Assembly: GCA_947166565.1 (NCBI GenBank)
Contig: CAMVEL010000007.1
Span: forward strand, 7,323-71,322
Length of the DNA stretch: 64,000 nucleotides
Reading direction: 5' to 3'
Source of the DNA: an uncultured Erysipelotrichaceae bacterium
GTDB taxonomy: Bacteria > Bacillota_I > Bacilli_A > RFN20 > CAG-826
In this document: positions 7,010 to 58,830 of the stretch, one piece after another
How the letters are laid out: each line of letters begins with the position of its first letter
How positions within the stretch are numbered: the first letter of the stretch is position 1
Program-made: the position numbers and the translations under genes
Notes under the pieces: generated by a model
What the model was told of the DNA's origin: nothing
Database searches by the model: none
Seen by the model: the letters and a program-made list of their open reading frames with translations, nothing else

Positions 7010-7010
7010 G

Positions 7011-9300: not shown

Positions 9301-9314
9301 TGAGCCCCCACTCC

Positions 9315-12044
9315 TTAGGCCACCTCGTCTGGGGTGACCACTTCTTCAACGGCTTCTTCCTCGCCTTCGGATTCGATGACATCGTCATTATCGACGGTGC
9401 CTTCTTCGAATTCGTCTTCATCGCTCACATCAGAATGCGGGATGATGGCAACCGAAGCAACCCTGGCGCTATCTTCGACGGAGATGATCTTGACGCCCAT
9501 GGTATTGCGGGAAGCGATCTTGACCTCGGATAGAGGTGTGCGGATAACGATGCCCTTTGTCGTGACGACAAGAAGGTCTTCGTCGCCGTTGACGGCCCTG
9601 ACGATAACGAGCTTGCCGGTTTTTGGAGAAGCTTTGACGGTAATAACGCCTTTGGCACCACGTTTGGTGAGGCGGTATCCATCATAATGGCGGCCATCCT
9701 CGGTATCGGTGTCTTTGGCGTAGGAGATTTTTCCATAGCCGCGGTTAGTGAGGACAAGGATCTTGTCGCCTTCGCCTTGGACGGCGATGCCAACGATTTC
9801 GGAACCGTCGCCAAGATCCATGCCACGGACGCCGGCGGCGGTACGACCCATCGCACGGACGTCTTCTTCATGGAAGCTGACGAGTTTGCCGTTGCTTGAA
9901 GCAAGGGCGACGATATCGTTGCCGCAGGTACGTTTGACGTCGAAGAGGTCATCGCCTTCGCGTAGACCAACAGCGATCTTACCATTGGAATGGATGGAGG
10001 CGAATTCCTTTAAGGACGTGCGTTTGACGATACCATTCTTCGTAACAAAGAAGAGGTAGTTGTCTTCTGGATAATCTTCGCATGGCATGATGGCGACGAC
10101 TTTCTCATCCTTATCGAGGTTGAGGAAGTTTTGGGCCGGGACGCCTTTTCCTGTCCTACCAGAATCTGGAATCTGGTGGCCGCGTAAGCGATAAACCTTG
10201 CCCAAAGATGAGAAGAAGAGGATGTCGGTATGGGTCTTCGTGTGCTTAATGAGCCTCACGATGTCGTTGCCGACGGTCTTCATGCCGGTGACGCCGACAC
10301 CGCCGCGGTGTTGGGCGGAGAAGGTGTCGTCATCGACCCTTTTGATATAACCGTTCTTGGTAAGGGCGATGATGATGTTCTTTTGTGGGATGAGGTCCTC
10401 GTTTTCGATATCGGCGGCCGCATCGGAAATCTCCGTACGTCTCCTATCGCCAAAGCGAGATTTGATTTCCTCAAGCTCGACGATCATCTGGTCGATGATG
10501 TTGTCCCTGGAGGAAAGGAGACGGTTGTATTCGGCGATGTTCGCTTCAAGAGTGCTCTTTTCGGCGTTGAGTTTGTCTTGCTCCATACCTTGCAAACGGC
10601 GGAGGGTCATCGCAAGGATCGCGTCGCATTGAGGTTGGGTCAATCCGAATCTCCCATTCAAACGTAGCGAGGATTCCTCATCGTTTTTCGAGTCACGGAT
10701 GATGTGAATGACTTCGTCGATGTTATCGTGAGCAAGGATCAAGCCTTCGACGATGTGGAGGCGATCGGTGTCTTTCTTAAGGAGGAATTTGGTCCTTCTG
10801 GTAATAACGGAGACCTGGAATTCAACGTAGTCCTTAAGGAGAGGGATGATGCCCAAGGTCTTTGGGGCCCCATCTTCAAGGCAGAGGTTGATGATACCGA
10901 AATTGCATTGAAGGGCGGTATGCTTAAGCAAATTGTTCGCGACGACTTCGGGAATGGTGTCTTTCCTGATGTCAATTACGACACGGATCTCGCCTTTTGA
11001 TGATTCGTCGCGGATACCGGTGATGCCATCAATGACCTTATCGCGGACCAATTGACCAATGTTTTCGACAAGGGCCGATTTGTTGACTTGATAAGGGATT
11101 TCGGTGACGATGATTTGGGATTTGCCGTTATCAAGGTCATCGATATGGTATTTGGCGCGGACCGTGACGGTGCCGGTTCCGGTGGTATAGGCATCGAGGA
11201 TTCCCTGTCTTCCAAGGATAATACCGCCGCCTGGGAAATCCGGACCAAAGAGGTATTCGGTCATGATTTCCTGAGGGGTGATTTCGGGATTCTTGGCAAC
11301 CGCGATGGTCGCGTTGATCGCCTCAGTTAGGTTATGTGGAGCCATGTTGGTGGCCATACCGACCGCGATACCCTGGGACCCATTGACGAGGAGATCAGGG
11401 AAGCGAGATGGCAAAACCTCTGGTTCGACTTCGGTGCCGTCGTAGTTAGGCATGAAGTTGACGGTATCCTTATCGATATCGCGAACCATTTCGAGGGAGA
11501 GCTTGTTCATCCTGGCCTCGGTATAACGCATAGCCGCGGGTTCATCGCCGTCGATGGAACCGAAGTTTCCGTGTCCATCAACAAGGGGATAACGCAACGA
11601 GAAATTCTGCGCCATACGGGCAAGCGTTCCATATAGGGCGGAGTCGCCGTGGGGGTGATATTTACCCATGACGTCACCAACGATACGAGCGCATTTCTTA
11701 TGTGGCTTATTCGGAGTGATGCCGGCTTCGTTCATGCCATAGATAATTCTGCGTTGGACTGGTTTCAAACCATCGCGAACATCGGGGATTGCACGGGAAA
11801 CGATGACGGACATAGAGTAATCAAGGAAGGCGGTTCGGACTTCTTTGACGACATCCCTATCAATCATCTCGGGGATGATTCCGCTTTTAGCCGCCTCTTC
11901 GCCAAACATCGCATCCGCGCTTTGGGCGCCTTCGCGATTGCCGGCGACGACCGTGATGCCCTCACGGTTTTCTTCGGTTTCGGATTCTTCTTCGTTTTCC
12001 TCAGCTTCTTCTTCGAGGATATCTTTTTCTTCTTCGTTAATCAT
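9315..12044 (-). CDS. gyrA: DNA gyrase subunit A
   Basis: 909 aa with the motifs [30 protein letters not shown] and HPHGDSALY. The ATG at 12044 is preceded by AGGAGGG at 8 nt. The protein carries an acidic N-terminal extension of about 45-60 aa and an acidic C-terminal tail. Confidence 0.97.
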
Positions 12045-12065
12045 TCGAAAATCCCTCCTTTTTCA

Positions 12066-15212
<3,147 letters not shown>

Positions 15213-15216
<4 letters not shown>

Positions 15217-15431
15217 CTGGTAACCTCGAATCTTTGACCAAGGACCTCGACGATTTCTCCTCCTCGGAGTTTTCTACCCCTACGGTTGTCGAGCTCACCA
15301 TCGATGAGGACTTCGTTCTTTTGAAGGAAGAACTTCGCCTCGGCTCCGTTATCGATTATTGAAACGAATTTGAGGAATTGACCGAGGGTTATGTATTCGG
15401 TCGTGATTTTCACCTTCTTGATTCCGTCCAT
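15213..15431 (-). CDS. yaaA: S4-domain RNA-binding protein YaaA
   Basis: 72 aa (ITLGQFLKF...DNRRGRKLRGGEIVE), matching the B. subtilis YaaA pattern and the dnaN-yaaA-recF synteny. Confidence 0.8.
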
Positions 15432-15475
15432 AAAAGGCCCTTTCTAAGACACGGATATAGTTTACTACATAGTAG

Positions 15476-15502
15476 TAAAAAGCGCTAGGGTTTTCCTAAC
15501 GC
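15476..15502 (-). terminator. Rho-independent terminator after dnaN
   Basis: The minus strand reads GCGTTAGG-aaaa-CCTAGCGC followed by TTTTT. The stem pairs better on the minus-strand RNA, where it has a G-U wobble instead of a C-A mismatch. Confidence 0.65.
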
Positions 15503-15546
15503 TTTTTTAACTTTTTTTCTTTGGATTTTTTTAGGCTCGAGAAGGC

Positions 15547-16668
15547 TTAATAAGCATGCATTGGAGTGATTAATTCAATGGCCGAATCATCTTTGGGGTC
15601 TTTGACGACGAAAGGCCTCATTTCGGCTTGGAAGCAAATCGTGACATCCTCGGTTTTTAGAGCTTTGATGGCATCGATGACGAAAAGGGAATTGAAGGTA
15701 ACTTCCAATCTTTCGCCTTCATAGGAGAATGTTTTGATTGGCTCGTTGCCAGATCCATGGCGGTCGCTCTTAACGGAGACTTCGACATGGTCTTCGCTCA
15801 TGGAAAGTTTAACCGCGTATTCCTTATCGGCCGAAAGAACGGCGATACGGCCCATGGCGTTTAGCAATTCTTGGGAATTGACTTGGAGTTTGTAGTTGCA
15901 AACGGTTGGGATAATCGAACGGGTGACTGGATAATCTCCAGGGATAAGCCTTGTAGAAACAACGTTGCCATCGAACATAAAGAGGGCTTTCTTATCCGAG
16001 ATGAAGATCCTCGTTTCCAAGGCACCTTCCATCAAACGGACGATATCTGTGAGAATCCTAGCGGGGATATTCGTGCGGAAGGAAACGTCGCTATCGATCT
16101 TCACTGATTTCCTAGCAAGCCTCGCAGAATCCGTTGCGGTCGCGGTCAAAACACCGTCTTTGGCCTCCAAATTCAAAGCCGTTAAAATGGCCCTTTGTTC
16201 TTTGCCGGAGGCGGCGAAGGCGCTTTGGGAAACCAAATCCGCAAGTACGTTGCAAGGGATGGTGAGTTCGGTTCCGCTCGGTTCTAAGTCGATGTCTGGG
16301 TATTCGTCCGCGGAAGCGCAATTGATTCTGAATAGAGAATGCCCGTCTTCTATTTTCGCGACTGCGTTATCGACGATATCGAGGAAAACCATTTCCCCTT
16401 CCATTCTTCTGACGATTTCGGTCATCATGCGGGCGTCTACCATCGCGGAGCCACGAACCGCATTAGTAATAATCGTGCGGTCGCCTAATATGTAGGGAAC
16501 CGTTGAACGGATCGTTATTTCGTTATTGGATCCAGTAACTTCCATACCGCGTTCAGTTAGATCCAATTTAAAATTCGAAAGGACGGCTACCGGATTCTTT
16601 GGGGCGATAGCGTGGTAGGCGTTTGTTAGCGCCGCGAGGAAACGTTCTTTGTTAATCGTTAGACGCAT
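15547..16668 (-). CDS. dnaN: DNA polymerase III beta sliding clamp
   Basis: 373 aa with a typical three-domain beta-clamp sequence, located immediately downstream of dnaA. Confidence 0.93.
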   Translation of the reverse strand: MRLTINKERFLAALTNAYHAIAPKNPVAVLSNFKLDLTERGMEVTGSNNEITIRSTVPYILGDRTIITNAVRGSAMVDARMMTEIVRRMEGEMVFLDIVDNAVAKIEDGHSLFRINCASADEYPDIDLEPSGTELTIPCNVLADLVSQSAFAASGKEQRAILTALNLEAKDGVLTATATDSARLARKSVKIDSDVSFRTNIPARILTDIVRLMEGALETRIFISDKKALFMFDGNVVSTRLIPGDYPVTRSIIPTVCNYKLQVNSQELLNAMGRIAVLSADKEYAVKLSMSEDHVEVSVKSDRHGSGNEPIKTFSYEGERLEVTFNSLFVIDAIKALKTEDVTICFQAEMRPFVVKDPKDDSAIELITPMHAY

Positions 16669-16809
16669 AATTAATTCCTTTCATTCAAATTCTTTTTTCT
16701 TTTAATAGAGTTAAGCGGTGTGGATTGTGTGGATAACTCGCCGTTTGGCTGTTCCTTATGATACCACCTTCCGCATTGGATTCATATCCTTTTATTTAAT
16801 AAATAAACC
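16669..16809 (-). other. oriC, dnaA-dnaN intergenic part (two tandem DnaA boxes + AT-rich candidate unwinding element)
   Basis: In gene orientation the sequence is GTTATCCACAcAATCCACAccgc followed by ttaactctattaaaagaaaaaagaatttgaat. There is a perfect TTATCCACA box at 16728-16736 (plus strand TGTGGATAA) and a second box at 16719-16726. The layout resembles B. subtilis incC. Confidence 0.7.
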
Positions 16810-18177
16810 TTATTTGGATAATTTGTTTTTTATCTCGTTTATGGCTGTCCCCATATCCGGGTCGTTTTTCAACTCTCTTTCCACTTTCGAGATACCGCTC
16901 AAGACGGTGGAATGATCCTTACCGCCAAATGCTTGACCTATCTTAATCAAGGGTGTTCCGAGCATTTCCCTATCGAGATACATAGCGATATGACGGGCCA
17001 TGGCCACGCGGCTTGTGCGTATCTTGCCGGTGATTTGGGATGGGGTTAATGAATAGTAATTAGCCACTGCAGCAATAATCTTGTTTTCCGTCAATTCATC
17101 CTGGCTTTCGTGAGCTTCTATCAAAGACCTTATAGCTTCCGAAACGACGCTCATGGTGATGTGCTTTGTTGGCTTGATGTTGATCGTGTAGAAGACCAAT
17201 CTCGTTAATGCACCCTCGAGATCCCTTACGTTGGAACAGAACTTCCTAGCGAGGAAGGAAATGACTTCTTCATCGAAGTCCTTTACGTCTAACCCATGCA
17301 TGGGTATCTTCGATTTCAATATGTTCTCACTAGTTTCAAGATCCGGTTTATCAATGCTTAGGACTAAGCCCTGCGAGAACCTCGATTTGAGTCTTTCGTC
17401 AATTCCGTCTAGATTATTTGGATGCTGATCGGAGGTAATGACAACCTGCTTGTTCGCGTTGATCAACGTTTGGAAAGCATCGAAGAACATTTCCATCGTT
17501 TTGGCTTTCTGCTTCAATAGTTGAATATCGTCAATCAAAAACAAATCAACGTCTTTTCTAAAGAAATCCGTGAAGGATTTAACGCCCTTATAACCGGTCG
17601 CGTATTTCACGTATTCGTTGATGAAATCCGAAGTGGAAAGGAAGAGGACCCTGGCTCCCGGGTTTTTCTCTCTAACAGCATTGCCGATCGCTTGCAAAAG
17701 GTGGGTTTTGCCTAAACCTGGGCCAGAGTATAGAAGCAAAGGGTTATAAAGCTGACCCGGCGTGGAAGCGATCATCAAAGACGCTTGATAAGCCTCTCTA
17801 TTCGATGGTCCGACAATAAAATTGTCGAAAGTGAACTGTTTATTTAAATGCGAAGAAGTGAAATATTGAGGAATCGAATCGTCTTTTGCTTCTTGGGTTT
17901 GACTTGAAGAGGAAGAAGCCACGAATTCAGCGTGGAAATCGGTTCCGGTGACATTATGGAGAACCTCGTCGATGGTTTCCGAGAATTTAGATTTCAAAAC
18001 GGCTGCCGCAACGGGAGTTGAAACGTTTACCGTAATAACATTATTATCTACGCGTGTGGCGTCCGTGCCTGCGAAAAAGCTATCGAAAATCCTTTGTTCG
18101 ATTTTGCCTTTTAATTCCTTCAGGGTCAGTTCCCAGATTGCCTTAAGTTCAGAAATGGTTTCATTCATAATATTCAC
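16810..18177 (-). CDS. dnaA: Chromosomal replication initiator protein DnaA
   Basis: 455 aa with the AAA+ Walker A GPGLGKTHLLQAIG, Walker B LFLIDDIQ, and a C-terminal DnaA-box binding domain (MARHIAMYL...GGKDHSTVL). Confidence 0.97.
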   Translation of the reverse strand: MNIMNETISELKAIWELTLKELKGKIEQRIFDSFFAGTDATRVDNNVITVNVSTPVAAAVLKSKFSETIDEVLHNVTGTDFHAEFVASSSSSQTQEAKDDSIPQYFTSSHLNKQFTFDNFIVGPSNREAYQASLMIASTPGQLYNPLLLYSGPGLGKTHLLQAIGNAVREKNPGARVLFLSTSDFINEYVKYATGYKGVKSFTDFFRKDVDLFLIDDIQLLKQKAKTMEMFFDAFQTLINANKQVVITSDQHPNNLDGIDERLKSRFSQGLVLSIDKPDLETSENILKSKIPMHGLDVKDFDEEVISFLARKFCSNVRDLEGALTRLVFYTINIKPTKHITMSVVSEAIRSLIEAHESQDELTENKIIAAVANYYSLTPSQITGKIRTSRVAMARHIAMYLDREMLGTPLIKIGQAFGGKDHSTVLSGISKVERELKNDPDMGTAINEIKNKLSK

Positions 18178-18591
18178 CTCCGGTATTTTGACATTTCCAC
18201 AATAAAAAGCAACTAAAATTTTAACATCATTGATTTTTCCACAATTTAACTTATATTCGGCAAAAAATGGCCTATTTATGGAGTTTTCAACTTTTCCACA
18301 TTGTGGATTAAATGTGGTAAAAATTACCCATATTCAAACCGTTGTGGAAAACTTATTTTTGCTAGGTGTTGCCAACATAGAAAACAGCTTCTTTTACATG
18401 CTGCAAAACGAAGAAATTAGACATTTCCCACAATTATCAACAAAATGCAATCAACATGGCTGTGGGAACGCTGTTTCGAAGAGGTTTTTTGGATGGAAAA
18501 CGAGGATAAAAACAATGGGGATATTTTTTGTTAATCTTTCGGATTTCCCATCTCCAAATTCTTTCGATGCCGAAATTGGTGTTTTTTGGTG
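18178..18591. other. oriC, dnaA-upstream DnaA-box cluster
   Basis: One-mismatch DnaA boxes: TTTTCCACA at 18235-18243 and 18292-18300, TGTGGATTA at 18302-18310 and TGTGGAAAA at 18343-18351. Weaker boxes lie at 18193-18201 and 18434-18442. The background is AT-rich, between the divergent dnaA and rpmH genes. Confidence 0.75.
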
Positions 18592-52251: not shown

Positions 52252-52350
52252 GCTCTCTTCCGAAGGAAAAGAGGCGCATGACTTCTATGGTCGCACGGGT
52301 TCCCTCCCGAGGCGATCCGATTAGTCCGAAACTAGGAGGTGCAAAAGATT
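52252..52350 (+). promoter_or_regulatory. Structured rpsF 5' leader (candidate S6:S18 autoregulatory element)
   Basis: A leader of about 100 nt. It contains hairpin CTCTCTTCC-gaa-GGAAAAGAG and a CCCTCCCGAGG segment whose CCTCC can pair with the SD GGAGG at 52335-52339. Confidence 0.4.
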
Positions 52351-52638
52351 ATGGGAAAGTACGAGATTATGTACATCCTCTCTGCCGAACTCGACGAAGC
52401 CGCTCGTAAAGCAGAGATCGAGAAGCTCCACGGCATTCTTACCAACGATGGTATCGAAGTTAAGAACGTCAATGAGTGGGGAGTCCGTGATTTTGCCTAT
52501 CCGATCAAAAAGCAGACCAAAGGCTACTATGTCGTCGTCAAAGTTGCTGGCGAAGCCGAAGGCCTCAAAGAATTTGATCGTTTGGCCAGGTTGGATAATG
52601 CCGTTATTCGGTTCCTTATCACCGTCGACAAAGAATAA
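52351..52638 (+). CDS. rpsF: 30S ribosomal protein S6
   Basis: MGKYEIMYIL.... The ATG at 52351 follows AGGAGGTG. The track's GTG 52339 lies inside the SD. Confidence 0.93.
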   Translation: MGKYEIMYILSAELDEAARKAEIEKLHGILTNDGIEVKNVNEWGVRDFAYPIKKQTKGYYVVVKVAGEAEGLKEFDRLARLDNAVIRFLITVDKE

Positions 52639-52658
52639 CACCTGTAGGAGGCAATATT

Positions 52659-53105
52659 ATGCTTAATTCCGTAGTGCTCGTTGGCCGCTTAACCCGCGAC
52701 CCAGAACTCCGTAAAACTCCGAACGGCTCTAGCGTTGCGAGTTTCCGCTTGGCTAGTGACGATTCCTTCTCGAAGAATGGAACAGAAAAAACGACAATCT
52801 ACATTGACGTTACAGTCTTTGGAGCCCGTGCTGACACCGTTGCGAAATATATGCGCAAAGGAAGCATGGTCGGCGTTACAGGTCGCTTAAGCCAAAGAAA
52901 ATACGTTTCCAACAAAACCAATACTGAGGTTACCGTGACAGAAATCATCGCCAACGGCGTTGAATTCATTGGGCCTAAGGCCCAAGACGCTGACGACTCT
53001 GGTTATCAACCAGACGTTCCAGCGCCATCTGCCCCGGCCACCCAGGTATCTGAATCATCCAACCTTGACGGGGTTGATATCGTCGACGACGACCTCCCCT
53101 TCTAA
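52659..53105 (+). CDS. ssb: Single-stranded DNA-binding protein
   Basis: MLNSVVLVGRLTRDPELRKT, an OB fold, and an acidic C-terminal tip DDDLPF. Confidence 0.95.
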   Translation: MLNSVVLVGRLTRDPELRKTPNGSSVASFRLASDDSFSKNGTEKTTIYIDVTVFGARADTVAKYMRKGSMVGVTGRLSQRKYVSNKTNTEVTVTEIIANGVEFIGPKAQDADDSGYQPDVPAPSAPATQVSESSNLDGVDIVDDDLPF

Positions 53106-53135
53106 GGAAGGAACATTAAGAAAGGACAAACAAGA

Positions 53136-53360
53136 ATGGCTTTTAAGAAAATGCGTTCTCGCAAGAAGCAGTGCTATTTCAAAAAGAACCACATCAAGTT
53201 CATCGATTATAAGGATGTCGAAACCCTCAAGAAATTCGTTTCTTCCGATGGCAAGATTACCCCTCGTTCCATCACCGGCACGAGCGCCAAATATCAGCGT
53301 GAACTTGCGGTTGCGATCAAGAACGCCCGTTATATGGGTCTTCTCCCAGTCGTTAAGTAA
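53136..53360 (+). CDS. rpsR: 30S ribosomal protein S18
   Basis: 74 aa ([22 protein letters not shown]...[17 protein letters not shown]). Confidence 0.95.
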
Positions 53361-53421
53361 ACTAGCCTGCTTGTCGCAGGACGAACCCGATTCCCCGATT
53401 TAGGACAAAACGGATTCACCT

Positions 53422-53470
53422 CGACGACGAAGCAACAAACCATCAAGACCGTCCCACGTGGGCGGTTTTC
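53422..53470 (+). repeat. Repeat copy A (GAAGCAACAAACC + CCCACGTGGG hairpin + T tract); acts as the rpsR terminator
   Basis: cgacgacGAAGCAACAAACCAtCAAGACCGTCCCACGTGGGCGGTTTTC. It differs from copy C at 1 of the last 42 nt. Confidence 0.85.
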
Positions 53471-53494
53471 TTATGTTTCTCCTCTTGCTAGTAG

Positions 53495-53622
53495 TATAAT
53501 TGGCTTGGGAATGATGTCTCCCATCTAGAAATAGAGAACCGCAATGAAGTGCTGATGACGTCTATGACTTGTTTTGTCATAGAAATCAGCGCTTTTGTTT
53601 CTATGGCAGATGGGAGGTATCG
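53495..53622 (+). promoter_or_regulatory. -10 box plus a rod-like ~110-nt leader that sequesters the antiporter SD
   Basis: The -10 box is TATAAT at 53495-53500. Stem P1, 53514-53526 (atgtCTCCCATCT), pairs with 53608-53620 (AGATGGGAGgtat), which contains the SD GGGAGG. The inner stems are 53527-53531/53598-53602, 53547-53556/53585-53594 (aagtGCTGAT/ATCAGCgctt) and 53561-53568/53576-53583 (TCTATGAC/GTCATAGA). Confidence 0.55.
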
Positions 53623-54813
53623 ATGAATATATTTCTGTCTTTGTTTATTATTTTTGGTGGTGGGATCCTCGGTGGGTTTTTATTTGAGAAGATCAAACTC
53701 CCCAAACTGGTGTGGTATATCATTCTCGGGATTCTTATTGGACCATCTTTGTTCAATATCGTTGATGATACGTTGCTGTCGGTTTCGTCTCATCTAAGGC
53801 AAATCGCTTTGGTCATCATATTGACCAGGTCAGGCCTATCTTTGAACATTAAGAACCTAAAGAAAATAGGGCGACCTGCGATATTGATGTGCTTTTTACC
53901 CGCTTGTTTTGAAATTGCGGGCATCACGATATTTGGCCCAATGCTCCTCGGGATATCCTATTTCGAAGCCTTGCTTCTTGGCTCGGTCTTGGCGGCCGTT
54001 TCGCCGGCGGTAGTGGTTCCGAGAATGATTCGCCTAATGGAAGAAGGATATGGAAAAGAACACTGCGTGCCCGAACTTGTGATGGCGGGGGCATCTTGTG
54101 ACGACATCTTTGTAATCGTACTTTTCTATTCGTTCAAGAATCTGATCGCAACGTCCACCTTTGACGCTTGGAGCGTCGGGCAAATCCCCATTTCGATCGT
54201 CTCCGGTGTCATTTTGGGCATCGGAGTAGGCTTCTTGATGGTTTTAGCCATTCGATACATGAAACTAAATAGAATCGTCCATGTCATTTTGATGCTCGGT
54301 CTCTCCTTTGGGATGCTCGCCCTCGAGAATGCCTTGAAACCGTATTTCAGCGTTTCGTCTCTATTAGCCATCATCGTCATGGCATTTGTGGTGGGCGTCT
54401 TTAAAAAAGAGGAAGCGAAGGAGATGCAGAAATCCTATAACGGCTTATGGCAAGGTTTTGAAATCCTATTGTTCGCTCTCGTTGGCATTGCGGTCGATGT
54501 TCGTTACGCTTTTTCAAAAGAAGGGGCAGTCATCGTTGGGCTGGTTTTCATTGCGTTGGTATTTAGAAGTTTAGGCGTGTTTTGCAGCATAATTGCAACG
54601 AAATTCGCTTGGAAAGAAAAACTATATATCGTCGTTTCTTATCTCCCTAAGGCGACCGTTCAAGCATCGATTGGGGCGATTGCTTTGTCCGAAGGCCTTG
54701 CTTGCGGCACGTTGGTGCTGACCGCTGCGGTGGTGGCAATATTGATAACCGCTCCATTGGGTGCGATATTGATGGATAACCTGAAAAACAAATTGCTTAA
54801 GAGGGAGGCGTAG
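53623..54813 (+). CDS. Cation:proton antiporter (Na+/H+ exchanger family)
   Basis: 396 aa, polytopic, beginning MNIFLSLFIIFGGGILGGFLFEKIKLPKLVWYIILGILIGP. ATG 53623 lies 5 nt after GGGAGG. The track's upstream TTG start lies inside the leader hairpin. Confidence 0.85.
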   Translation: MNIFLSLFIIFGGGILGGFLFEKIKLPKLVWYIILGILIGPSLFNIVDDTLLSVSSHLRQIALVIILTRSGLSLNIKNLKKIGRPAILMCFLPACFEIAGITIFGPMLLGISYFEALLLGSVLAAVSPAVVVPRMIRLMEEGYGKEHCVPELVMAGASCDDIFVIVLFYSFKNLIATSTFDAWSVGQIPISIVSGVILGIGVGFLMVLAIRYMKLNRIVHVILMLGLSFGMLALENALKPYFSVSSLLAIIVMAFVVGVFKKEEAKEMQKSYNGLWQGFEILLFALVGIAVDVRYAFSKEGAVIVGLVFIALVFRSLGVFCSIIATKFAWKEKLYIVVSYLPKATVQASIGAIALSEGLACGTLVLTAAVVAILITAPLGAILMDNLKNKLLKREA

Positions 54814-54837
54814 TTCCTTCGACTCTTTTATAGGCAA

Positions 54838-54937
54838 GAAGCAACAAATCAACAGGACCGTCCCACGTGGGGCGGTTTTTTCATGCTCGTCCGCCCCTCG
54901 TCCTGGAGTTTTCAGAAGCCATCGACGTCGAAGCTAC
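54838..54937 (+). repeat. Repeat copy B (extended): hairpin module + CCCTCGTCCTGGA + CATCGACGTCGAAGCTAC
   Basis: GAAGCAACAAAtCAACAgGACCGTCCCACGTGGgGCGGTTTTTTC, then ...CCCTCGTCCTGGA(54895-54907)...CCATCGACGtCGAAGCtAC(54919-54937). The second half parallels copy D. It sits directly downstream of the antiporter. Confidence 0.8.
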
Positions 54938-55072
54938 TTTATATACTTGTATATAACTCGTTCTGGCTAGCCCCGGTCGTCCCACGTCTCACGATCGTCC
55001 TTGTGCCGGCAAATTGTTAGGCGTCGTTGGAATCGTGTCACATGGCTCGAATATGGGCTTCGTCGGAGAGAG

Positions 55073-55136
55073 CGGAGTTTGTTCTTTTTCGGAGAATTGG
55101 CGTCGTCATGGGACAGCTTGTGTGTCAGGACGAGAG
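55073..55136 (-). repeat. Degenerate inverted copy (E) of the CTCGTCCTG ... GACGACG ... AACAAAC module
   Basis: The minus strand reads CTCTCGTCCTGacacacaagctgtcCCATGACGACGccaattctccgaaaaAGAACAAACTCC. A degenerate hairpin relic (GGTCGTCCCACGTCTCACG) lies at 54975-54993. Confidence 0.5.
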
Positions 55137-55170
55137 CAATTCTCCTCGTTCATACGAAGATCGTTCTCCC

Positions 55171-55220
55171 CGAAACACGAAGCAACAAACCAACAAGACC
55201 GTCCCACGTGGGCGGTTTTC
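55171..55220 (+). repeat. Repeat copy C; abuts the stop codon of the minus-strand ABC-2 operon
   Basis: cgaaacacGAAGCAACAAACCAaCAAGACCGTCCCACGTGGGCGGTTTTC. On the minus strand the hairpin is followed by CTTGTTGGTTTGTTGCTTC, so bidirectional terminator function is plausible. Confidence 0.85.
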
Positions 55221-55224
55221 TATT

Positions 55225-56016
55225 TCACGATCCCGTGGACTCGTAACGCCTGGCGCATAACGTCCAGATCAACGTGGCCAAAGCGAAGAAAGCAATCGCT
55301 GCTCCGACAATGATCAAGCTCAACAAGTAGGGGTTGTAACTCCCATAGAGCAAAGTATCGACCGGCAGGGAAATGAATAAGCCAAATGGCAAGATGAAGA
55401 TCAGGATGAAGCGGATCGCCTGGGGGTAGATGGCGATCGGGTATTTCGCGTAGATCGTGAAGTTATAGACGATTTGCAGCAGGGGTCCGCTTTTCTTGAA
55501 GATGAAGGCCAAGGAAGATAAAGCGATCTTGAAGGAAGTGATGATGATCGCCCCGAAGATCGCCCCGATGATCAAGACGAAGATCGCCCCAAAACTGACC
55601 GATGTCTGGAGGTTCAGCCCGCAGATGGTGATCATGGTGACCCCGACGATGATCTCGCCGAAACCATCGGGCTGGAACGTCTCCGCGAACATCTGGAAGA
55701 TCACGGGCACAGGACGCAGGAAGTGCCGGTCCATATCGCCCAATTGGACCCTTCGATAAGCAACCAGCCAGAATTCGTCGCTGAAGAGGTGATCCAAGGC
55801 GATCGGAAGCATCGAAAAACCATAGAAGAAACCGACTTCCGCGGGAGTATATCCCTTCAAAGAAGGGATGGCTTGGAGAATGAAGAAGATGGAACCCAAG
55901 GAGCAGGCATTGGAAATCAAAAAGGAAAGGATTGAGATGATCGAGTCCTTCTTATATTCCAAGCGGGACATCATGCTGCGCTTGATGCAGGTGAGATAAA
56001 GCTTCACGTATCGCAT
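55225..56016 (-). CDS. ABC-2-type transporter permease (uncharacterised ABC system)
   Basis: 263 aa, about 6 TM, last gene of a three-gene ATPase-permease-permease operon. Confidence 0.75.
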   Translation of the reverse strand: MRYVKLYLTCIKRSMMSRLEYKKDSIISILSFLISNACSLGSIFFILQAIPSLKGYTPAEVGFFYGFSMLPIALDHLFSDEFWLVAYRRVQLGDMDRHFLRPVPVIFQMFAETFQPDGFGEIIVGVTMITICGLNLQTSVSFGAIFVLIIGAIFGAIIITSFKIALSSLAFIFKKSGPLLQIVYNFTIYAKYPIAIYPQAIRFILIFILPFGLFISLPVDTLLYGSYNPYLLSLIIVGAAIAFFALATLIWTLCARRYESTGS

Positions 56017-56017
56017 C

Positions 56018-56878
56018 TTATCCTCCCTGCACCGTCACGATCTTGATCGCGTGGTTGAATAGCAATTTGCCGATGAGTTCCAATAGGACCCACCATCCGA
56101 AAGAGATGAGGATCACTTTTCCGCATTCGAGGTAATCGTATTTCATCATGAGGATGAGAATCGGGTTCTGGCTCATGCCCGCGAAGGGCATGTAGCTTAC
56201 GATTTCGCGGAAGATATTGGGGAAAAACGCGATCGGAAGCAAGGTGCCGGATAAGAAGGCGATCACCGTCGTCTTGAGCGCGTTTAAACCCCAGGCCGCG
56301 GTGGTGTAGAAGCACAAGATCCCGAAGATATAGGAAATCGCCCCATTCAATAAGCAGGCGAGGACGCTGGCGACGAGGAACAATAGGAAATGGGCGATGA
56401 AATCCCAGATTGAAGCCACGGGAAGATAGCCGATCCCAATGAGTACCCCGAGGCCCGCGGCGTACAAAGGAATCCCAAAGACCAGCGACATCATGAGGAA
56501 CGCTCCAATGTTCGAGGCGATGAATTTCCCGCGGTAGGAAATCGGCTTGATGAGGAAGTTTCCAATCGTCCCTTGCCGGATATCGCGGTTGATGAACCAC
56601 ACGGTATCGTCATTGAACGTCACGAAGCCGAAGATCGTCGTCAATACCACATAAACGATCATCTCTTTGTAGGTGAAGCCGTTGATCGAAGAATCGATCC
56701 CGCCTTCGCTACTTTGATAAACGGCGAGCCAAAGGAAAATGAGACAAGCCACTTCGGCGACGGTGACGATCGCCCAGGTGATGATGTTGAAGCGGTAGGC
56801 CATCACATCGATGGCCGACGCGCGGGCGAATGGCTTATATTTCCTCAGCCTACTCATGTTCTTCTTCCTGCTGGGCAA
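56018..56878 (-). CDS. ABC-2-type transporter permease (uncharacterised ABC system)
   Basis: 286 aa, polytopic. The start is 56878 or 56857 (MSRLRKYKPF), and either overlaps the end of the ATPase gene. Confidence 0.75.
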   Translation of the reverse strand: MPSRKKNMSRLRKYKPFARASAIDVMAYRFNIITWAIVTVAEVACLIFLWLAVYQSSEGGIDSSINGFTYKEMIVYVVLTTIFGFVTFNDDTVWFINRDIRQGTIGNFLIKPISYRGKFIASNIGAFLMMSLVFGIPLYAAGLGVLIGIGYLPVASIWDFIAHFLLFLVASVLACLLNGAISYIFGILCFYTTAAWGLNALKTTVIAFLSGTLLPIAFFPNIFREIVSYMPFAGMSQNPILILMMKYDYLECGKVILISFGWWVLLELIGKLLFNHAIKIVTVQGG

Positions 56879-57854
56879 GGATCTTCTTCACGACGTCTTC
56901 GATTGAGATGTCCGTGATTTTCATATCGATCGCGTGATATTGGGAGAAAGAGTATTGGATGATGTGCTCGAGCACGACCTTGTCCGCGTCAAATTTGAGC
57001 ATGACCTTATCTTTATGGTCTTCATCCAACTCCATCATGACGTCTTCGGAGAATGGTTTCACTTCATTCGGATCGACGCTCGGGGGGATGGTCAAGGTCA
57101 GGGTCTTGATGTTCCCGAACCGCCGCTTGATATTCCCCAACGGGCCATCATAGATGATCTTCCCTTTCTCGATCATGATGATGCGCGAGCAGAGGTTCTC
57201 AATGTCCGCCATATCATGGGTAGTGAGGACGACGGTGGTGTGGTATTTCGCGTTCAACGCGTGGATCGCCGTGCGGATCTTGTCTTTGACAAGGACATCC
57301 ATGCCGATGGTAGGTTCATCAAGGAAGAGGATCTTCGGGTTATGAAGCATCGATGCCGCCAAATCCGCGCGCATCCTTTGCCCTAAGGAAAGAGTGCGGA
57401 CCGGCTGATTCATGAATTCGTCGACGCCGAGGACGGAGGATAGGAATTGGATCCTTTCCTCATAATCGGAATCCGACACTTGATAAACCTCTTTGAGCAC
57501 TTTGAATGACTCGATCAAGGGGATGTCCCACCATAACTGGCTCTTCTGCCCGAAGACGACCCCGATGTCTTTGGCGACGATCCGGCGCTTCAGATAGGGC
57601 TCTTTGTCGTCGATCAATACCTTTCCGGAGGTGGGGGTGAGGATGCCGCACATCATCTTGATCGTGGTGGATTTCCCCGCGCCATTGGAGCCGATGTAGC
57701 CGACGATCTCGCCTTCCATGATGTCGAAAGAGACGTCATCGACGGCGCGGATCTCCGTGTATTTCCGGGAGAACAAAGTGGCAAGCATCCCAACGAGGCC
57801 TTTGCCCCTTATGGGTTTCCGAAAGATTTTGCTTAGGTTTTGGACTTGGATCAT
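56850..57854 (-). CDS. ABC transporter ATP-binding protein
   Basis: I place the start at ATG 57854 (MIQVQNLSKIF). Walker A is GSNGAGKST, the signature is LSLGQRMR, and Walker B is LFLDEPT. The 50 upstream codons of the track ORF run through repeat copy D. Confidence 0.88.
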   Translation of the reverse strand: MIQVQNLSKIFRKPIRGKGLVGMLATLFSRKYTEIRAVDDVSFDIMEGEIVGYIGSNGAGKSTTIKMMCGILTPTSGKVLIDDKEPYLKRRIVAKDIGVVFGQKSQLWWDIPLIESFKVLKEVYQVSDSDYEERIQFLSSVLGVDEFMNQPVRTLSLGQRMRADLAASMLHNPKILFLDEPTIGMDVLVKDKIRTAIHALNAKYHTTVVLTTHDMADIENLCSRIIMIEKGKIIYDGPLGNIKRRFGNIKTLTLTIPPSVDPNEVKPFSEDVMMELDEDHKDKVMLKFDADKVVLEHIIQYSFSQYHAIDMKITDISIEDVVKKILAQQEEEHE

Positions 57855-57916
57855 GTTGAGAATACCTTTGGTATCGTTCCTTATTGTACCGCAGCGGGCA
57901 AGGCAAAAGAAAGAAG

Positions 57917-57999
57917 CGTCCCTCGTGGACGGTTCTTTCGTCGTCGTGTGTCCCTCGTCCTGGAAATATTGGAAATCATCGACGACGAAGCAACAAACC
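57917..57999 (+). repeat. Repeat copy D: variant hairpin + CCCTCGTCCTGGA + CATCGACGACGAAGCAACAAACC
   Basis: CGTCC-ctcgt-GGACG (57917-57931), CCCTCGTCCTGGA (57952-57964) and CATCGACGACGAAGCAACAAACC (57977-57999). On the minus strand the hairpin is followed by CTTCTTTCTTTT, so it works as the terminator of the lipoprotein gene. Confidence 0.75.
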
Positions 58000-58122
58000 G
58001 ACATTATTCAGGCGACTACTATGTTTATAAATGTAGAAAGTGTGGCGCAGCCTGGACAAAACATATTAGCTAACCATCACTTTATCGTTTGCTTAAGTTA
58101 AGTCGTCCATAGTGGCGATTCT

Positions 58123-58674
58123 TTATCTATATGATACGGAATACGCTGTTTTTTGTGTTCCGTTAAGCGGCTCGCCTTTATATGTTCCTTTAGCAGTAGC
58201 TTGAAGCAAATAATCAGTAAGGTAGCCATAGTTATTATAGGTTTGGCTTTCAATGGTTCTGATGGTTCTTTCTTCTATTGTTTCTGTATAATCAACATAA
58301 GCTTTAAATGGCTCTATAAAATATTGATATCCAAGATCCTTGCTATCTTCGCTTTCTTCTGCTTTTTTAAATTCATCTTTTATGGTTCTGTTTATTTCAT
58401 CAGTAAGATCATATTCATATTTTTCATCAGGAAGGAATTTGTTTTGTTCATCGTTCCATGAATAATTGAGCGTTGCGTTAATTGTTTGCCCCTCTCCAGA
58501 TAAGTCATCAAAATATGTAATTTTCAGTGTGGCGTGAGAATGATGATTATTCTCTATTTCTTGTATCTTTTGATAAAACTCTGAGTACTCAACCTTTTTT
58601 GGGCTATTGTTATTGTTACACGCCACTAAAGAGAGTGTTGAAATAAAACAAAATACTAAAAATCCCTTTTTCAT
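58123..58674 (-). CDS. Hypothetical lipoprotein (AT-rich)
   Basis: ATG 58674 follows GAGGG. The signal peptide and lipobox read MKKGFLVFCFISTLSLVAC. I recognise no family. Confidence 0.65.
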   Translation of the reverse strand: MKKGFLVFCFISTLSLVACNNNNSPKKVEYSEFYQKIQEIENNHHSHATLKITYFDDLSGEGQTINATLNYSWNDEQNKFLPDEKYEYDLTDEINRTIKDEFKKAEESEDSKDLGYQYFIEPFKAYVDYTETIEERTIRTIESQTYNNYGYLTDYLLQATAKGTYKGEPLNGTQKTAYSVSYR

Positions 58675-58830
58675 AAAAATACCCTCAAATCGACATAGAT
58701 ATTTTAACATGGGACACGTAGATCATCTACAAAGTGATTGCGGCAAAAAGTTCCACGAACCTAAATGATAAAAATTGTTGCTAATTTGTTGCAAACTTTG
58801 TGCTAACATACGAATAATAAAGGAATTTTT

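Follow-up and report, generated by a model that had tools for sequence, protein, structure and literature searches.

Islands of the SaPI4 family, and likewise SscPIC2865, are integrated where rpsR ends (3'); they encode a tyrosine integrase, and their direct repeats measure 15 bp (PMC8407400). The array described here also follows rpsR. It was found in a window of 64,000 nucleotides (the whole stretch of DNA that was analysed), where it extends from 53372 to about 58000, is hypervariable and is bounded by rpsR and a conserved DNA-alkylation-repair gene. The array contains four types of module: R (3'-UTR-like), T (terminator hairpin), P (decayed R/T) and L (inverted R-T paralogue). Our main subject is one gene-less interval of this array, a gap of about 340 bp at 54883-55224. 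Our comparison set consists of 38 loci, taken from genomes and metagenomes of rumen Erysipelotrichaceae/Bacilli, in which the modules recur; these are mostly metagenome contigs or MAGs, in which repeat chimeras could inflate the number of rearrangements (L005 and L006 are suspect).

The CIME-type elements of streptococci arise by tandem accretion of integrase-less islands. As in these elements and in the rpsR islands, direct repeats flank the cargo here and several units lie in tandem; in a single array (L013) a 3' fragment of rpsR is also duplicated. In contrast to the SaPI4 family, no integrase was found in the 38 loci, the repeats are terminator modules of 45-200 nt that start past the rpsR stop codon, and the units measure only 0.3-2.6 kb, gene-less ones included. 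The combination of a tyrosine integrase with att repeats that include the rpsR 3' end, typical of that family, is not seen.

In integron arrays and in CALINs (clusters of attC sites without an integrase), as here, every small cassette ends in an imperfect palindromic repeat that is conserved. The cargo is similarly rich in toxin-antitoxin systems and GNAT acetyltransferases, and its content varies strongly among close relatives. Unlike integrons, the array has no IntI and no R''/L''/L'/R' architecture, its repeat is a terminator, its cassettes, found in either orientation, bring a promoter of their own or a riboswitch, and the host belongs to the Erysipelotrichaceae, a Firmicute lineage. No integrase domain was present in the genes flanking the arrays, in the window or in the loci, and the repeat ends do not carry attC core sites of the form RYYYAAC ... 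GTTRRRY. A candidate attC was rejected: GTTAGGC (55015-55021) is on the wrong side of the repeat and is not conserved, ATATAGG taking its place in L001 and the L013 copies lacking it.

MITEs, the mobile insertion cassettes of Bacillus and mini Tn7-like elements resemble the array in their TGT...ACA tips, imperfect terminal inverted repeat, sub-terminal boxes, passenger genes between the ends, 5-nt spacing and single orientation downstream of a conserved gene. The array differs from them in that target duplications are inconsistent, a cognate transposase was not found, and the limits of recently transferred tracts are T hairpins and not the tips of the inverted repeat. Exact-ended terminal inverted repeats, as in MITEs and other non-autonomous elements, are present (19 of 25 positions at the tips, exact ends in 30 L copies and more than 30 R copies); many dispersed copies with an autonomous relative are not, each genome having one array. 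As with Tn7-like elements, insertion is found a short, set distance past a conserved gene and always in the same orientation, and no TnsB, TnsA, TnsC or target selector was found in the arrays.

REP/BIME, pneumococcal BOX and neisserial Correia/NIME elements and paired uptake sequences are, like the array, mosaics of short hairpin-forming modules at the 3' ends of genes, which likely act as terminators or insulators and promote rearrangement. These families are dispersed in tens to hundreds of copies per genome, whereas all copies lie in one array here: no module copy occurs in the other 58 kb of the window, and the representative genomes gave one or two core matches each, far from a high copy number.

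Bidirectional intrinsic terminators between convergent genes have an A-rich tract, a GC hairpin and a T tract, as found here (the A-rich tract is GAAGCAACAAACCAACAA). In the array, however, all cassette borders carry one and the same 45-nt terminator, at which recombination break points also fall, and the reverse-strand hairpin of its third copy is weaker (-10.2 kcal/mol).

Considering these comparisons together with the results below, the gap is probably a gene-less interval of a cassette array after rpsR, built from a lineage-specific family of modules.

Organisation of the array

The 340-bp gap is a gene-less junction of terminator-carrying repeat modules, and very probably neither a gene nor a small RNA. 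Across it the modules are arranged in the order T(B), P1, AT palindrome, T relic, L, 5-nt spacer, R and T(C). The features of the array are the following.

53372-53447, plus strand: R module of copy A (gamma type), start TGTCGCAGGACGA, 11 nt past the rpsR stop codon
53446-53471, plus strand: T hairpin of copy A (AAGACCGTCC-CACGT-GGGCGGTTTT), from the terminator scan, fold -13.6 kcal/mol
53498-53571, plus strand: fluoride riboswitch aptamer, leader of the exchanger cassette gene (RF01734, 37.5 bits against a gathering score of 34)
53623-54813, plus strand: Na+/H+ exchanger gene, cargo left of the gap (PF00999, E 2.6e-43)
54836-54880, plus strand: copy B, the R 3' tail (GAAGCAACAAATCAACA) with its T hairpin, fold -16.9 kcal/mol, z -3.7
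54881-54940, plus strand: P1, short and R-like (CCTCGTCCTGG ... CGACGTCGAAGCTAC), with its homologue in module D (57937-57994)
54940-54955, no strand: AT palindrome TATATAC-tt-GTATATA, in the T-hairpin slot after the R tail
54975-54993, plus strand: decayed T hairpin (relic) GGTCGTCCCACGTCTCACG, inside P2, 74 % complementary to the copy B hairpin
55018-55115, minus strand: L arm, an inverted diverged R+T paralogue, about 64 % identical to the reverse complement of R+T
55116-55120, no strand: spacer GCTTG, 5 nt, from the L end to the R start
55121-55197, plus strand: R module of copy C (alpha type), start TGTGTCAGGACGA
55196-55221, no strand: T hairpin of copy C, which borders the gap on the right and lies 4 nt from the ABC-2 permease stop
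55225-57856, minus strand: ABC-2 type transporter operon (two permeases and an ATPase), cargo right of the gap (Pfam)
57916-58000, plus strand: module D, made up of a symmetric T hairpin (CGTCC-ctcgt-GGACG), a stretch resembling P1 and an R tail, fold -17.8 and -15.8 kcal/mol on the two strands
58099-58120, no strand: hairpin variant of T2 type (AAGTCGTCC-atagt-GGCGATT), at the 3' end of the following gene

The initial annotation of this DNA had named copies B and C. Copies A (53427-53471), B (54836-54880) and C (55177-55221) are real direct repeats, A and C being 98 % identical over 45 nt. The general form of the T hairpin is GACCGTCC-loop-GGGCGGTTTT. The pattern CGTCC-N5/6-GGRCG, for which about 0.15 matches are expected by chance in the window, occurs there only at 53450, 54859, 55200 and 57917, and at 20723 without module context. 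The remaining terminators of the window are unrelated to it.

P1 is 74 % identical to 57937-57994 over 58 nt (blastn) and is found in L007, L014-L017, L019, L022 and others. The AT palindrome and the hairpin relic are both present as the initial annotation described them. The palindrome is kept with a variable centre in L011, L016 (twice), L017, L019 and L031, it is weak as RNA (-1.7 kcal/mol), and in L035 an R module is joined at its centre. In relatives the relic is conserved as GGTCGGTCCACGTCACACGAT.

The inverted module, earlier placed at 55073-55136, is indeed inverted, but its extent is larger than was claimed and corresponds to the whole L arm. L contains two direct repeats of about 26 nt with GGAGA boxes and has a sharp terminus, ...GGCGTCGTCATGGGACA, at 55115. 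Its last 25 nt are complementary to 55121-55145 at 19 of 25 positions (76 %).

Module D is cut at 58000 by AT-rich DNA, at a junction common to the window and L035. The T2-type variant hairpin also occurs in L011, L017, L019, L027 and L033.

T hairpins as terminators

For the T hairpins of A, B, C and D, fold energies range from -13.2 to -17.8 kcal/mol and z from -3.0 to -3.8; these hairpins lie 23-86 nt past the ends of genes or 4 nt from a convergent stop codon. They have the form of intrinsic terminators, a GC-rich hairpin and then a T run at a gene end, and the scan for such terminators found copy A. The hairpin of copy A is the predicted terminator of rpsF-ssb-rpsR and also the left border of the exchanger cassette. 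Copy B is predicted to terminate the exchanger gene and borders the gap on the left. Copy C, previously suggested to be a terminator, does fold as a terminator-type hairpin (-13.2 kcal/mol on the plus strand); the minus strand, at -10.2 kcal/mol, is followed by a U-rich tail provided by the R tail, and the hairpin probably acts as a bidirectional terminator.

The R tail and T together comprise 45 nt, with an A-rich tract, the hairpin and a T tract, and they close each cassette. This unit very probably insulates its neighbours transcriptionally in both directions, terminator and insulator activity being deduced only from sequence and folding. In this genome T_B would probably end transcription of the exchanger gene and T_C, in reverse, that of the ABC-2 operon, and the gap would also provide a scaffold for recombination. 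A reusable 45-nt bidirectional terminator would also be a potential genetic part.

Coding potential of the gap

The gap separates two convergent genes, the plus-strand exchanger and the minus-strand ABC-2 permease, and holds no credible gene; the initial annotation was right on both counts. It had also drawn attention to a stretch without forward stops. This stretch extends from 55018 (TAG) to 55244, 226 nt without TAA, TAG or TGA in any of the three frames, and is the longest of the 5234 inter-stop gaps on both strands of the window. When 54883-55260 was shuffled 5000 times with its dinucleotides preserved, a run as long arose only 4 times, so that in this copy the run is beyond chance. Persistence of the depletion in homologues had been proposed as a check; other copies of the unit have between zero and five forward stops, and the stop-free state is not conserved.

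This run, the longest in the window, might be taken as the sign of a small protein, encoded by ORF 55001-55246, 55014-55313 or 55027-55260, to which we assign almost no probability. The four ORFs of the gap have no match in Pfam, and the reading frame is not conserved among homologues: copies differ by indels that are not multiples of three and have stops in these frames. Two of the ORFs extend into the convergent ABC-2 gene. All three start with TTG, and no ribosome-binding site was seen upstream when the sequence was read by eye. The depletion of forward-strand stops is a feature that the explanation by a cassette array leaves unaccounted for.

RNA structure

The initial annotation had favoured a structured transcript of 250-300 nt ending at copy C, which finds no support in an Rfam match, in covariation or in a promoter-like site. 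A search with cmscan of 53300-55400 at E<=10 returned the fluoride riboswitch only, and hence no family in the gap. In scans of the window and 11 loci at the Rfam gathering thresholds, only SRP RNA and fluoride riboswitches were found, and the modules had no match.

The hairpin formed by L and R folds at -80.7 kcal/mol (z -4.05). It folds well only because it is an inverted repeat; the long hairpin of the gap is the end of L abutting the start of R and nothing more. No covariation, the evidence that had been asked for earlier, was detected over 49 pairs in ten homologous units, the score being 0.113 against 0.120 in shuffles (409 of 500 shuffles scored at least as high as observed). Double changes affect only two of the 49 pairs, and the RNAalifold covariation term for the ten units is +1.7. 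Transition mismatches compatible with G·U pairing number 64 for the plus strand and 69 for the minus strand, so neither is favoured. The left 138 nt of the gap fold no better than shuffles (z +1.39). A promoter scan of the gap found no sigma-70-like site on the plus strand and one weak match on the minus strand (55041-55013), the total count being no higher than in shuffles, and copy B, a strong predicted terminator, lies directly upstream of the gap.

The unit is also not kept intact in relatives. L and R are separated by 235 nt in L015 and L028, by genes in L019, and also lie apart in L021, so that the distance between them ranges from 235 nt to kilobases of cargo. R is missing in L014 and the whole gap in L002.

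A small regulatory or structural RNA of about 200 nt at 55018-55221, made of a long irregular hairpin and an intrinsic terminator on the plus strand, would agree with the more stable fold of that strand (z -4.05 compared to -2.8 for the minus strand), the terminator at its end and the recurrence of the unit after genes in L001, L013 (three times), L016 and L018. We nevertheless regard such an RNA as very improbable given the absence of covariation and of strand bias in the mismatches, the empty Rfam search, the lack of a plus-strand promoter-like site, and arms that are separated or single in L014, L015, L019, L021, L030 and L033; in addition, the same L pairs with three unrelated types of R middle. 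For annotation, a false lead is thereby removed, an sRNA or small protein at the gap being very improbable.

Exchange of cassettes between loci

The module family is confined to one lineage and low in copy number. Scans of the whole collection found its core in only eight loci, all in rumen Erysipelotrichaceae/Bacilli MAGs with one or two matches each. The L arm is present in 15 metagenome contigs, several of which have two or three copies inside 10 kb. The region 54836-55224 had no match in the plasmid and phage collections.

Between the window and other species rpsF, ssb and rpsR are 62-80 % identical; where this is so, the promoter, riboswitch, exchanger gene and copy B are 99-100 % identical. 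Among the modules, between-species identity is 71-93 % for P1, P2 and L together, 78-93 % for L, 92-100 % for T and 77-92 % for R. The exchanger gene is 99.0-99.4 % identical in L014, L015, L016 and L029 and about 90 % in L034-L038; an exact-sequence look-up of its protein matched no record. The ABC-2 operon is 98.5-99.1 % identical in L001, L002 and L009, which have different left neighbours, and 81 % in L014.

Identity to L014, L015 and L016 jumps to 100 % at the foot and loop of the T_A hairpin and drops again about 16-24 nt past T_B. Structural variants at the 3' end of the ABC-2 operon all join at the T hairpin of copy C. In L002 the exchanger gene is joined to the ABC-2 operon through a single hybrid T, and in L014 L is kept without R. 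L016 has the whole T-P1-P2-L-R-T block twice, around a small peptide-gene cassette, and L022 has rpsR-R-T-P1-P2-L-R-T with no genes at all. In the nearest relatives, L034-L038, which have an identical S18, the flanking rpsR and DNA-alkylation-repair/DUF1295 genes are kept and the cassettes are different. These five loci were considered as belonging to the same species, which was rejected: despite the identical S18, the upstream region is only 84-90 % identical.

The sequence of the gap is 71-93 % identical in some relatives and missing altogether in others. These comparisons show that each cassette between T hairpins has a history of its own, that cassettes pass from species to species, and that the gap is gained, lost or remodelled among close relatives.

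The initial annotation had offered a graveyard of repeat insertions as its alternative, and this is nearer the mark than the structured transcript. The pieces do all belong to one repeat family. They are not inert, however, since L, R and T are conserved across species, have sharp reproducible ends and border exchangeable cassettes. In its strict form, where duplications and deletions of the rpsR terminator region left debris that today does nothing beyond chance, this explanation is improbable. It would fit a gap that is made solely of decayed copies of neighbouring modules, that has no gene, Rfam match or covariation, and that is dispensable, as its absence from L002 indicates. On the other hand, L and T exceed the adjacent rpsF, ssb and rpsR genes in between-species conservation, the final 31 nt of L hardly vary among 30 copies that come from many genomes, with a random base right after them, and the hairpins T(B) and T(C) are intact and sited at gene ends.

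Termini of L and R

The end of L (55115, ...ACA) and the start of R (55121, TGT...) are sharp, conserved and usually 5 nt apart, the junction having the form ...GGCGTCGTCATGGGACA-N5-TGTGTCAGGACGAG. In 30 non-redundant copies the conservation of L continues up to ...CATGGGACA and stops exactly after ACA, with instant divergence beyond. R follows in about 17 of these; the others are followed by unrelated cargo or by a 235-nt mini-element. The start of R is always TGT[GC][TG][CT]AGGACGA and is exact in more than 30 copies. The first R starts 5-13 nt past the rpsR stop codon, always in the same orientation, in species whose rpsR genes are 72-99 % identical. Homology to L004 and L007, where the rpsR context is different, begins exactly at 55121. 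Of about 19 junctions between L and R, at least 14 have a spacer of 5 nt, and the same spacer sequence hardly ever recurs. GGAGAA/TTCTCC boxes lie about 20 and 44 nt from each tip. A Xer/dif-type site was considered; by eye, the arms around the spacer bear no likeness to the dif sequence of Firmicutes.

L035 reads rpsR-AGCCTGCTTG-TGTGTCAGG, and the window reads AGCCTGCT[gamma R ... exchanger ... L]GCTTG-TGTGTCAGG; compared to L035, the window has a clean insertion at the start of R. Target-site duplications were checked at about nine elements. They fit in L013 (TTGTG/TTGTG), in the window compared to L035 (GCT or GCTTG) and in L030 (AAAC), and they fail in L019, L022, L024, L026 and L028.

The termini raise the question of whether two non-autonomous transposable cassettes face each other in the gap, with a DDE transposase like those of Tn7, Mu or Tn552 moving them in trans. 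Each element would have the start of R (TGT...), T, cargo and the end of L (...ACA), and would insert downstream of rpsR beside resident copies, with 5 bp between elements. The inverted repeat of 19 in 25 positions with TGT/ACA tips, the boxes, the ends that are exact in 30 copies and the constant 5-nt spacing all point this way, as do the single complete R...L elements immediately after rpsR in L024 and L030, the occupied and empty sites of the window and L035, which fit a 3-5 bp duplication, and a RhuM-GNAT element in L013 that has TTGTG on both sides. Even so, we think it rather unlikely. No locus carries a transposase, there is one locus per genome without dispersal, most elements lack duplications, and L-cargo-L arrangements without R exist (L019, L031). 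The literature on Tn7-like attachment sites, as searched, does not mention rpsR. Moreover, the recent unit of transfer runs from T to T: the exchanger block is 99-100 % identical and R (77-92 %) and P/L (71-93 %) are far more diverged, so R...L did not move as a unit recently.

Mechanism of exchange

No recombinase or transposase was found in the 38 loci, by searching about 50 array genes against Pfam/NCBIfam and from existing Pfam annotations, and none was recognised by eye among the translations of 1-47 kb in the rest of the window. An IS200/IS605-like arrangement, with cargo between like-oriented hairpins, was considered and rejected; the identity break is at or inside the T_A hairpin and not upstream of it, and a Y1 transposase is absent.

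Under the cassette-array explanation, R-T would be the 3' UTR and intrinsic terminator of rpsF-ssb-rpsR, copies of which recur along the array, P1 and P2 would be decayed copies of R/T, and L an old inverted R-T paralogue. Cassettes are probably gained, lost and replaced by recombination with end points in the shared T/R-tail modules. Homology-guided exchange after DNA transfer appears the most likely route, its arms being supplied by the modules and by rpsF-ssb-rpsR alongside. Base-exact termini are more than homologous recombination by itself can explain. The precise TGT...ACA ends and fixed 5-nt spacing would probably derive from an older or parallel site-specific process, its enzyme being encoded elsewhere.

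Tentatively, we raise the possibility that rumen Erysipelotrichaceae have a previously undescribed cassette-capture locus after rpsR, in which the T hairpins and the facing L and R termini are the sites of a dedicated recombinase or transposase encoded in trans. Such an enzyme would account for three observations: the termini are exact, the spacing is fixed at 5 nt although its centres are hypervariable, and cassettes that are 99-100 % identical have passed between species with core genes only about 70 % identical. The locus would then be a functional analogue of an integron or a Tn7 island in Firmicutes, where to our knowledge integrons are essentially unknown, and the termini and hairpins would belong to a new system of cassette acquisition in that group.

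The array is a compact hot spot beside an essential ribosomal operon in abundant, uncultured rumen bacteria. Its cargo across the loci includes MNT/HepT toxin-antitoxin pairs, GNAT acetyltransferases, RhuM, ORF6N and HTH proteins, ABC transporters and a TIR-domain protein, all of which is typical accessory material. Fluoride-responsive ion export, ABC transporters, toxin-antitoxin systems and peptide precursors are among the accessory functions that appear to be exchanged across species in these small, terminator-insulated cassettes.

Setting of the gap

The gap, a gene-less interval at about 54883-55224, is best read as a point where conserved modules that border cassettes meet, within an array downstream of rpsR that appears to be hypervariable and exchanged horizontally. 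The modules are R (3'-UTR-like), T (terminator hairpin), P1 and P2 (decayed R/T copies) and L (an inverted paralogue of R-T). The surrounding features are as follows.

52339-53360, rpsF-ssb-rpsR operon, preceding the riboswitch
53427-53471, direct repeat copy A (about 45 nt)
53498-53571, fluoride riboswitch (RF01734), upstream of the exchanger gene
53623-54813, plus strand, Na+/H+ exchanger gene (PF00999), left neighbour of the gap
54836-54880, direct repeat copy B (about 45 nt)
54881-54940, P1, short module resembling R, with homology to module D
55177-55221, direct repeat copy C (about 45 nt)
55225-57856, minus strand, ABC-2 transporter operon, whose last gene borders the gap
57937-57994, module D, P1 homologue upstream of the ABC-2 promoter

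Copies A, B and C, of which A and C share 98 % identity, each consist of an A-rich tail (GAAGCAACAAAYCAACA) and a hairpin, GACCGTCC-loop-GGGCGGTTTT. Within the window T-type hairpins are confined to 53.4-58.1 kb and the remaining terminators bear no relation to them, so that 53372-58000 forms one array of modules and cassettes. The nearest relatives carry different cassettes between these same flanking genes (rpsR and the DNA-alkylation-repair/DUF1295 genes).

An abrupt junction (AAGCAACAAACCGACA|TTATTCAGG) at 58000 is common to the window and locus L035. GC content drops to 31-35 % in 58000-58800, where there are two minus-strand genes without a Pfam match, the first of which matches an NCBIfam lipoprotein model weakly and below threshold. 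The genes serS, gyrA, gyrB, recF, dnaN and dnaA were read by eye from translations at about 7000-18200, which puts the array some 35 kb away from the probable origin of replication. The bacterial small SRP RNA lies at 2580-2665 on the minus strand (RF00169, 51.8 bits). Inside the ABC-2 permease gene, at 55543-55602, a stretch of coding sequence repeats every 12 nt (GATGATCGCCCC / GAAGATCGCCCC).

Composition of the gap

The initial annotation observed the gap correctly. Its AT palindrome (54940-54955) and hairpin relic (54975-54993) are present, and occupy the positions where T hairpins would come next. The inverted module is also real but had been drawn too short: L spans 55018-55115 and aligns with the reverse complement of R-T (55121-55221) at about 64 % identity. 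The stretch free of forward stops covers 226 nt (55018-55244); among 5234 inter-stop gaps on the two strands of the window it ranks first in length, and 4 of 5000 dinucleotide-preserving shuffles reach it. This freedom from stops is not conserved: other copies of the unit contain 0-5 forward stops.

The two longest plus-strand runs without TAA, TAG or TGA in the window, this one and 57857-58028 (171 nt), both sit on modules of the R/T/L family, and forward stops are depleted about 3-fold in other module copies.

Relatives of the gap

Comparison loci comprised ten contigs from an exact look-up of the ABC-2 permease, eight loci from a pattern scan of representative genomes (all in MAGs of rumen Erysipelotrichaceae/Bacilli, with the core matched 1-2 times per locus), 15 further loci from a metagenome scan with the L-arm pattern, and five long contigs of nearest relatives from an S18 protein look-up. 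Most are metagenome contigs or MAGs, in which repeats may have been joined into chimeras; suspect in this respect are L005 and L006, whose junction falls in or beside the hairpin. The main patterns repeat in independent MAGs of different studies and in long contigs.

The gap is kept in L009 and L016 (82-88 % identity). It is missing from L002, where one hybrid hairpin links the exchanger gene to the ABC-2 operon. L014 lacks R, L stands alone between genes in L019, L021, L030 and L033, and in L016 the complete T-P1-P2-L-R-T block occurs twice, on either side of a tiny Nif11-type leader peptide gene. The arms are thus absent, separated or solitary in relatives, which shows that the L/R 'hairpin' has not been conserved as a unit.

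RNA and protein potential

A structured non-coding RNA had been proposed for the gap. For 55018-55224 the predicted plus-strand fold is a long hairpin followed by a terminator (-80.7 kcal/mol, z -4.05), which is what any inverted repeat would be expected to give. When ten homologous units are aligned, 92.6 % of cells pair, the very value obtained from column shuffles; the covariation score of 0.113 does not reach the mean of the shuffles (0.120), and the RNAalifold covariation term is unfavourable (+1.7). Aligning L as DNA, without bias, to the reverse complement of R gives 64 plus-strand and 69 minus-strand G·U-compatible mismatches, which are thus equally frequent. Shuffled sequences fold at least as well as the left 138 nt of the gap (z +1.39), and strong terminator B lies immediately upstream. 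With no Rfam family matched even at E<=10, no covariation, no strand bias and no plus-strand promoter-like site found on scanning the gap, the non-coding RNA interpretation is not supported.

A small protein was rejected; the four ORFs have no Pfam match and carry frameshifting indels between copies.

Independent histories of the cassettes

Identity of window segments to comparison loci
rpsF, ssb, rpsR: 62-80 % (L014, L015, L016)
Promoter, riboswitch, exchanger gene, copy B: 99-100 % (L014, L015, L016)
P1: 74-86 % (L014, L015, L016)
P2: 71-87 % (L014, L015, L016)
L: 78-93 % (L014, L015, L016)
ABC-2 operon: 81 % (L014)
ABC-2 operon: 98.5-99 % (L001, L002, L009)

Identity steps up to 100 % at the foot and loop of the copy A hairpin (T_A) and drops again 16-24 nt beyond that of copy B (T_B); T hairpins match the positions of the identity break points. 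That the exchanger block is near-identical despite the divergence of rpsF, ssb and rpsR argues for the exchange of T-bounded cassettes between species, and points to a recent transfer of 53472-54880. The gap is one T-bounded interval without a gene. The exchanger allele of L034-L038, the nearest relatives by flanking genes, is about 90 % identical. The block 53472-54880 (promoter, riboswitch, exchanger gene, terminator B) is also 99-100 % identical in L029, whose rpsF/ssb/rpsR likewise reach just 62-80 %, and about 90 % identical in L034-L038.

L035 reads rpsR-AGCCTGCTTG-TGTGTCAGG; the window reads AGCCTGCT, then gamma R (the R type of copy A) through the exchanger to L, then GCTTG-TGTGTCAGG, a clean insertion at the R start. 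Against L034-L038, rpsF-ssb-rpsR (52339-53360) is 99.1-99.3 % identical and lysS 89-90 %; this peak looks like a recombination tract extending into the core genes beside the array. The 7 kb upstream of the operon are 84-85 % identical.

Module termini and mechanism

The last 31 nt of L (TTTTTCGGAGAATTGGCGTCGTCATGGGACA) are almost invariant among 30 non-redundant copies, which diverge directly past ACA. R always starts with TGT[GC][TG][CT]AGGACGA, and the first R of an array lies 5-13 nt past the rpsR stop in species whose rpsR genes are 72-99 % identical. Homology to L004 and L007, which have a different left context, starts exactly at 55121. Of about 19 junctions in which R follows L, at least 14 have a spacer of 5 nt, its sequence almost never repeated. 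The L and R tips form an inverted repeat (19/25), with GGAGAA boxes about 20 and 44 nt from each tip.

T hairpins are terminator-type folds (-13 to -18 kcal/mol); the reverse strand of T(C), the copy C hairpin, gives a weaker hairpin (-10.2 kcal/mol) and then a U-rich tract from the R tail. The 45-nt tail and hairpin probably act as a bidirectional terminator insulating cassettes, and the shared modules together with rpsF-ssb-rpsR probably supply arms for homologous replacement. Since homology alone fails for base-exact termini and fixed 5-nt spacing, we infer that at some point a process of site-specific or transpositional type must have been at work. The termini resemble those of MITE/MIC elements or mini-Tn7. 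However, searches of the arrays turned up no recombinase or transposase, and none was recognised when the rest of the window was inspected by eye; target duplications are inconsistent, and the recently moved unit runs T-to-T, not R-to-L. The non-autonomous transposon is therefore ranked as a rival and not as the main explanation.

The T loops (53455-53459, 54865-54869, 55205-55209), the L/R spacer (55116-55120) and their homologues are hypervariable centres. All three palindromes of the module family nevertheless keep their stems and centre length, and the copy B loop differs from that of L014 within a block otherwise 100 % identical over 1.4 kb.

Comparison with known systems

Integrase-carrying islands of staphylococci are known to use the rpsR 3' end as a hub (PMC8407400; PMC5341023). 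Those islands have an integrase and 15-bp repeats, whereas no integrase was found in the array. Integron/CALIN arrays are similar in cargo (toxin-antitoxin pairs, GNATs) and in the palindromic repeat closing each cassette, but the array lacks IntI and attC core sites, and each orientation occurs among its cassettes, which bring their own promoters. Unlike MITE/MIC or mini-Tn7 elements, it is not dispersed. No similar DNA was matched in plasmid and phage collections.

Further elements in related loci

A palindromic mini-element of about 235 nt directly follows the L end in L015 (between L and R), L021, L028, L034 (11720-11960) and L035 (11890-12130); its centre is a bidirectional terminator (CAGGCGTCTCGAAAGAGGCGTCTTTTG). 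Tiny cassettes (L016:2016-2303, L017 from about 1190, L013:529-828) encode a peptide of 95-99 aa that has a Nif11-type leader and a Gly-Gly motif and resembles the precursor of a RiPP or bacteriocin. In L019 a T2-type hairpin carries in its loop, at about 4225-4590, an internally deleted IS3-family element with the OrfA start fused to the OrfB C-terminus. A piece of the rpsR 3' end about 75 nt long (L013:246-330, minus orientation) lies upstream of an internal R-T copy and riboswitch, and suggests that an island may once have inserted there with duplication of the rpsR end.
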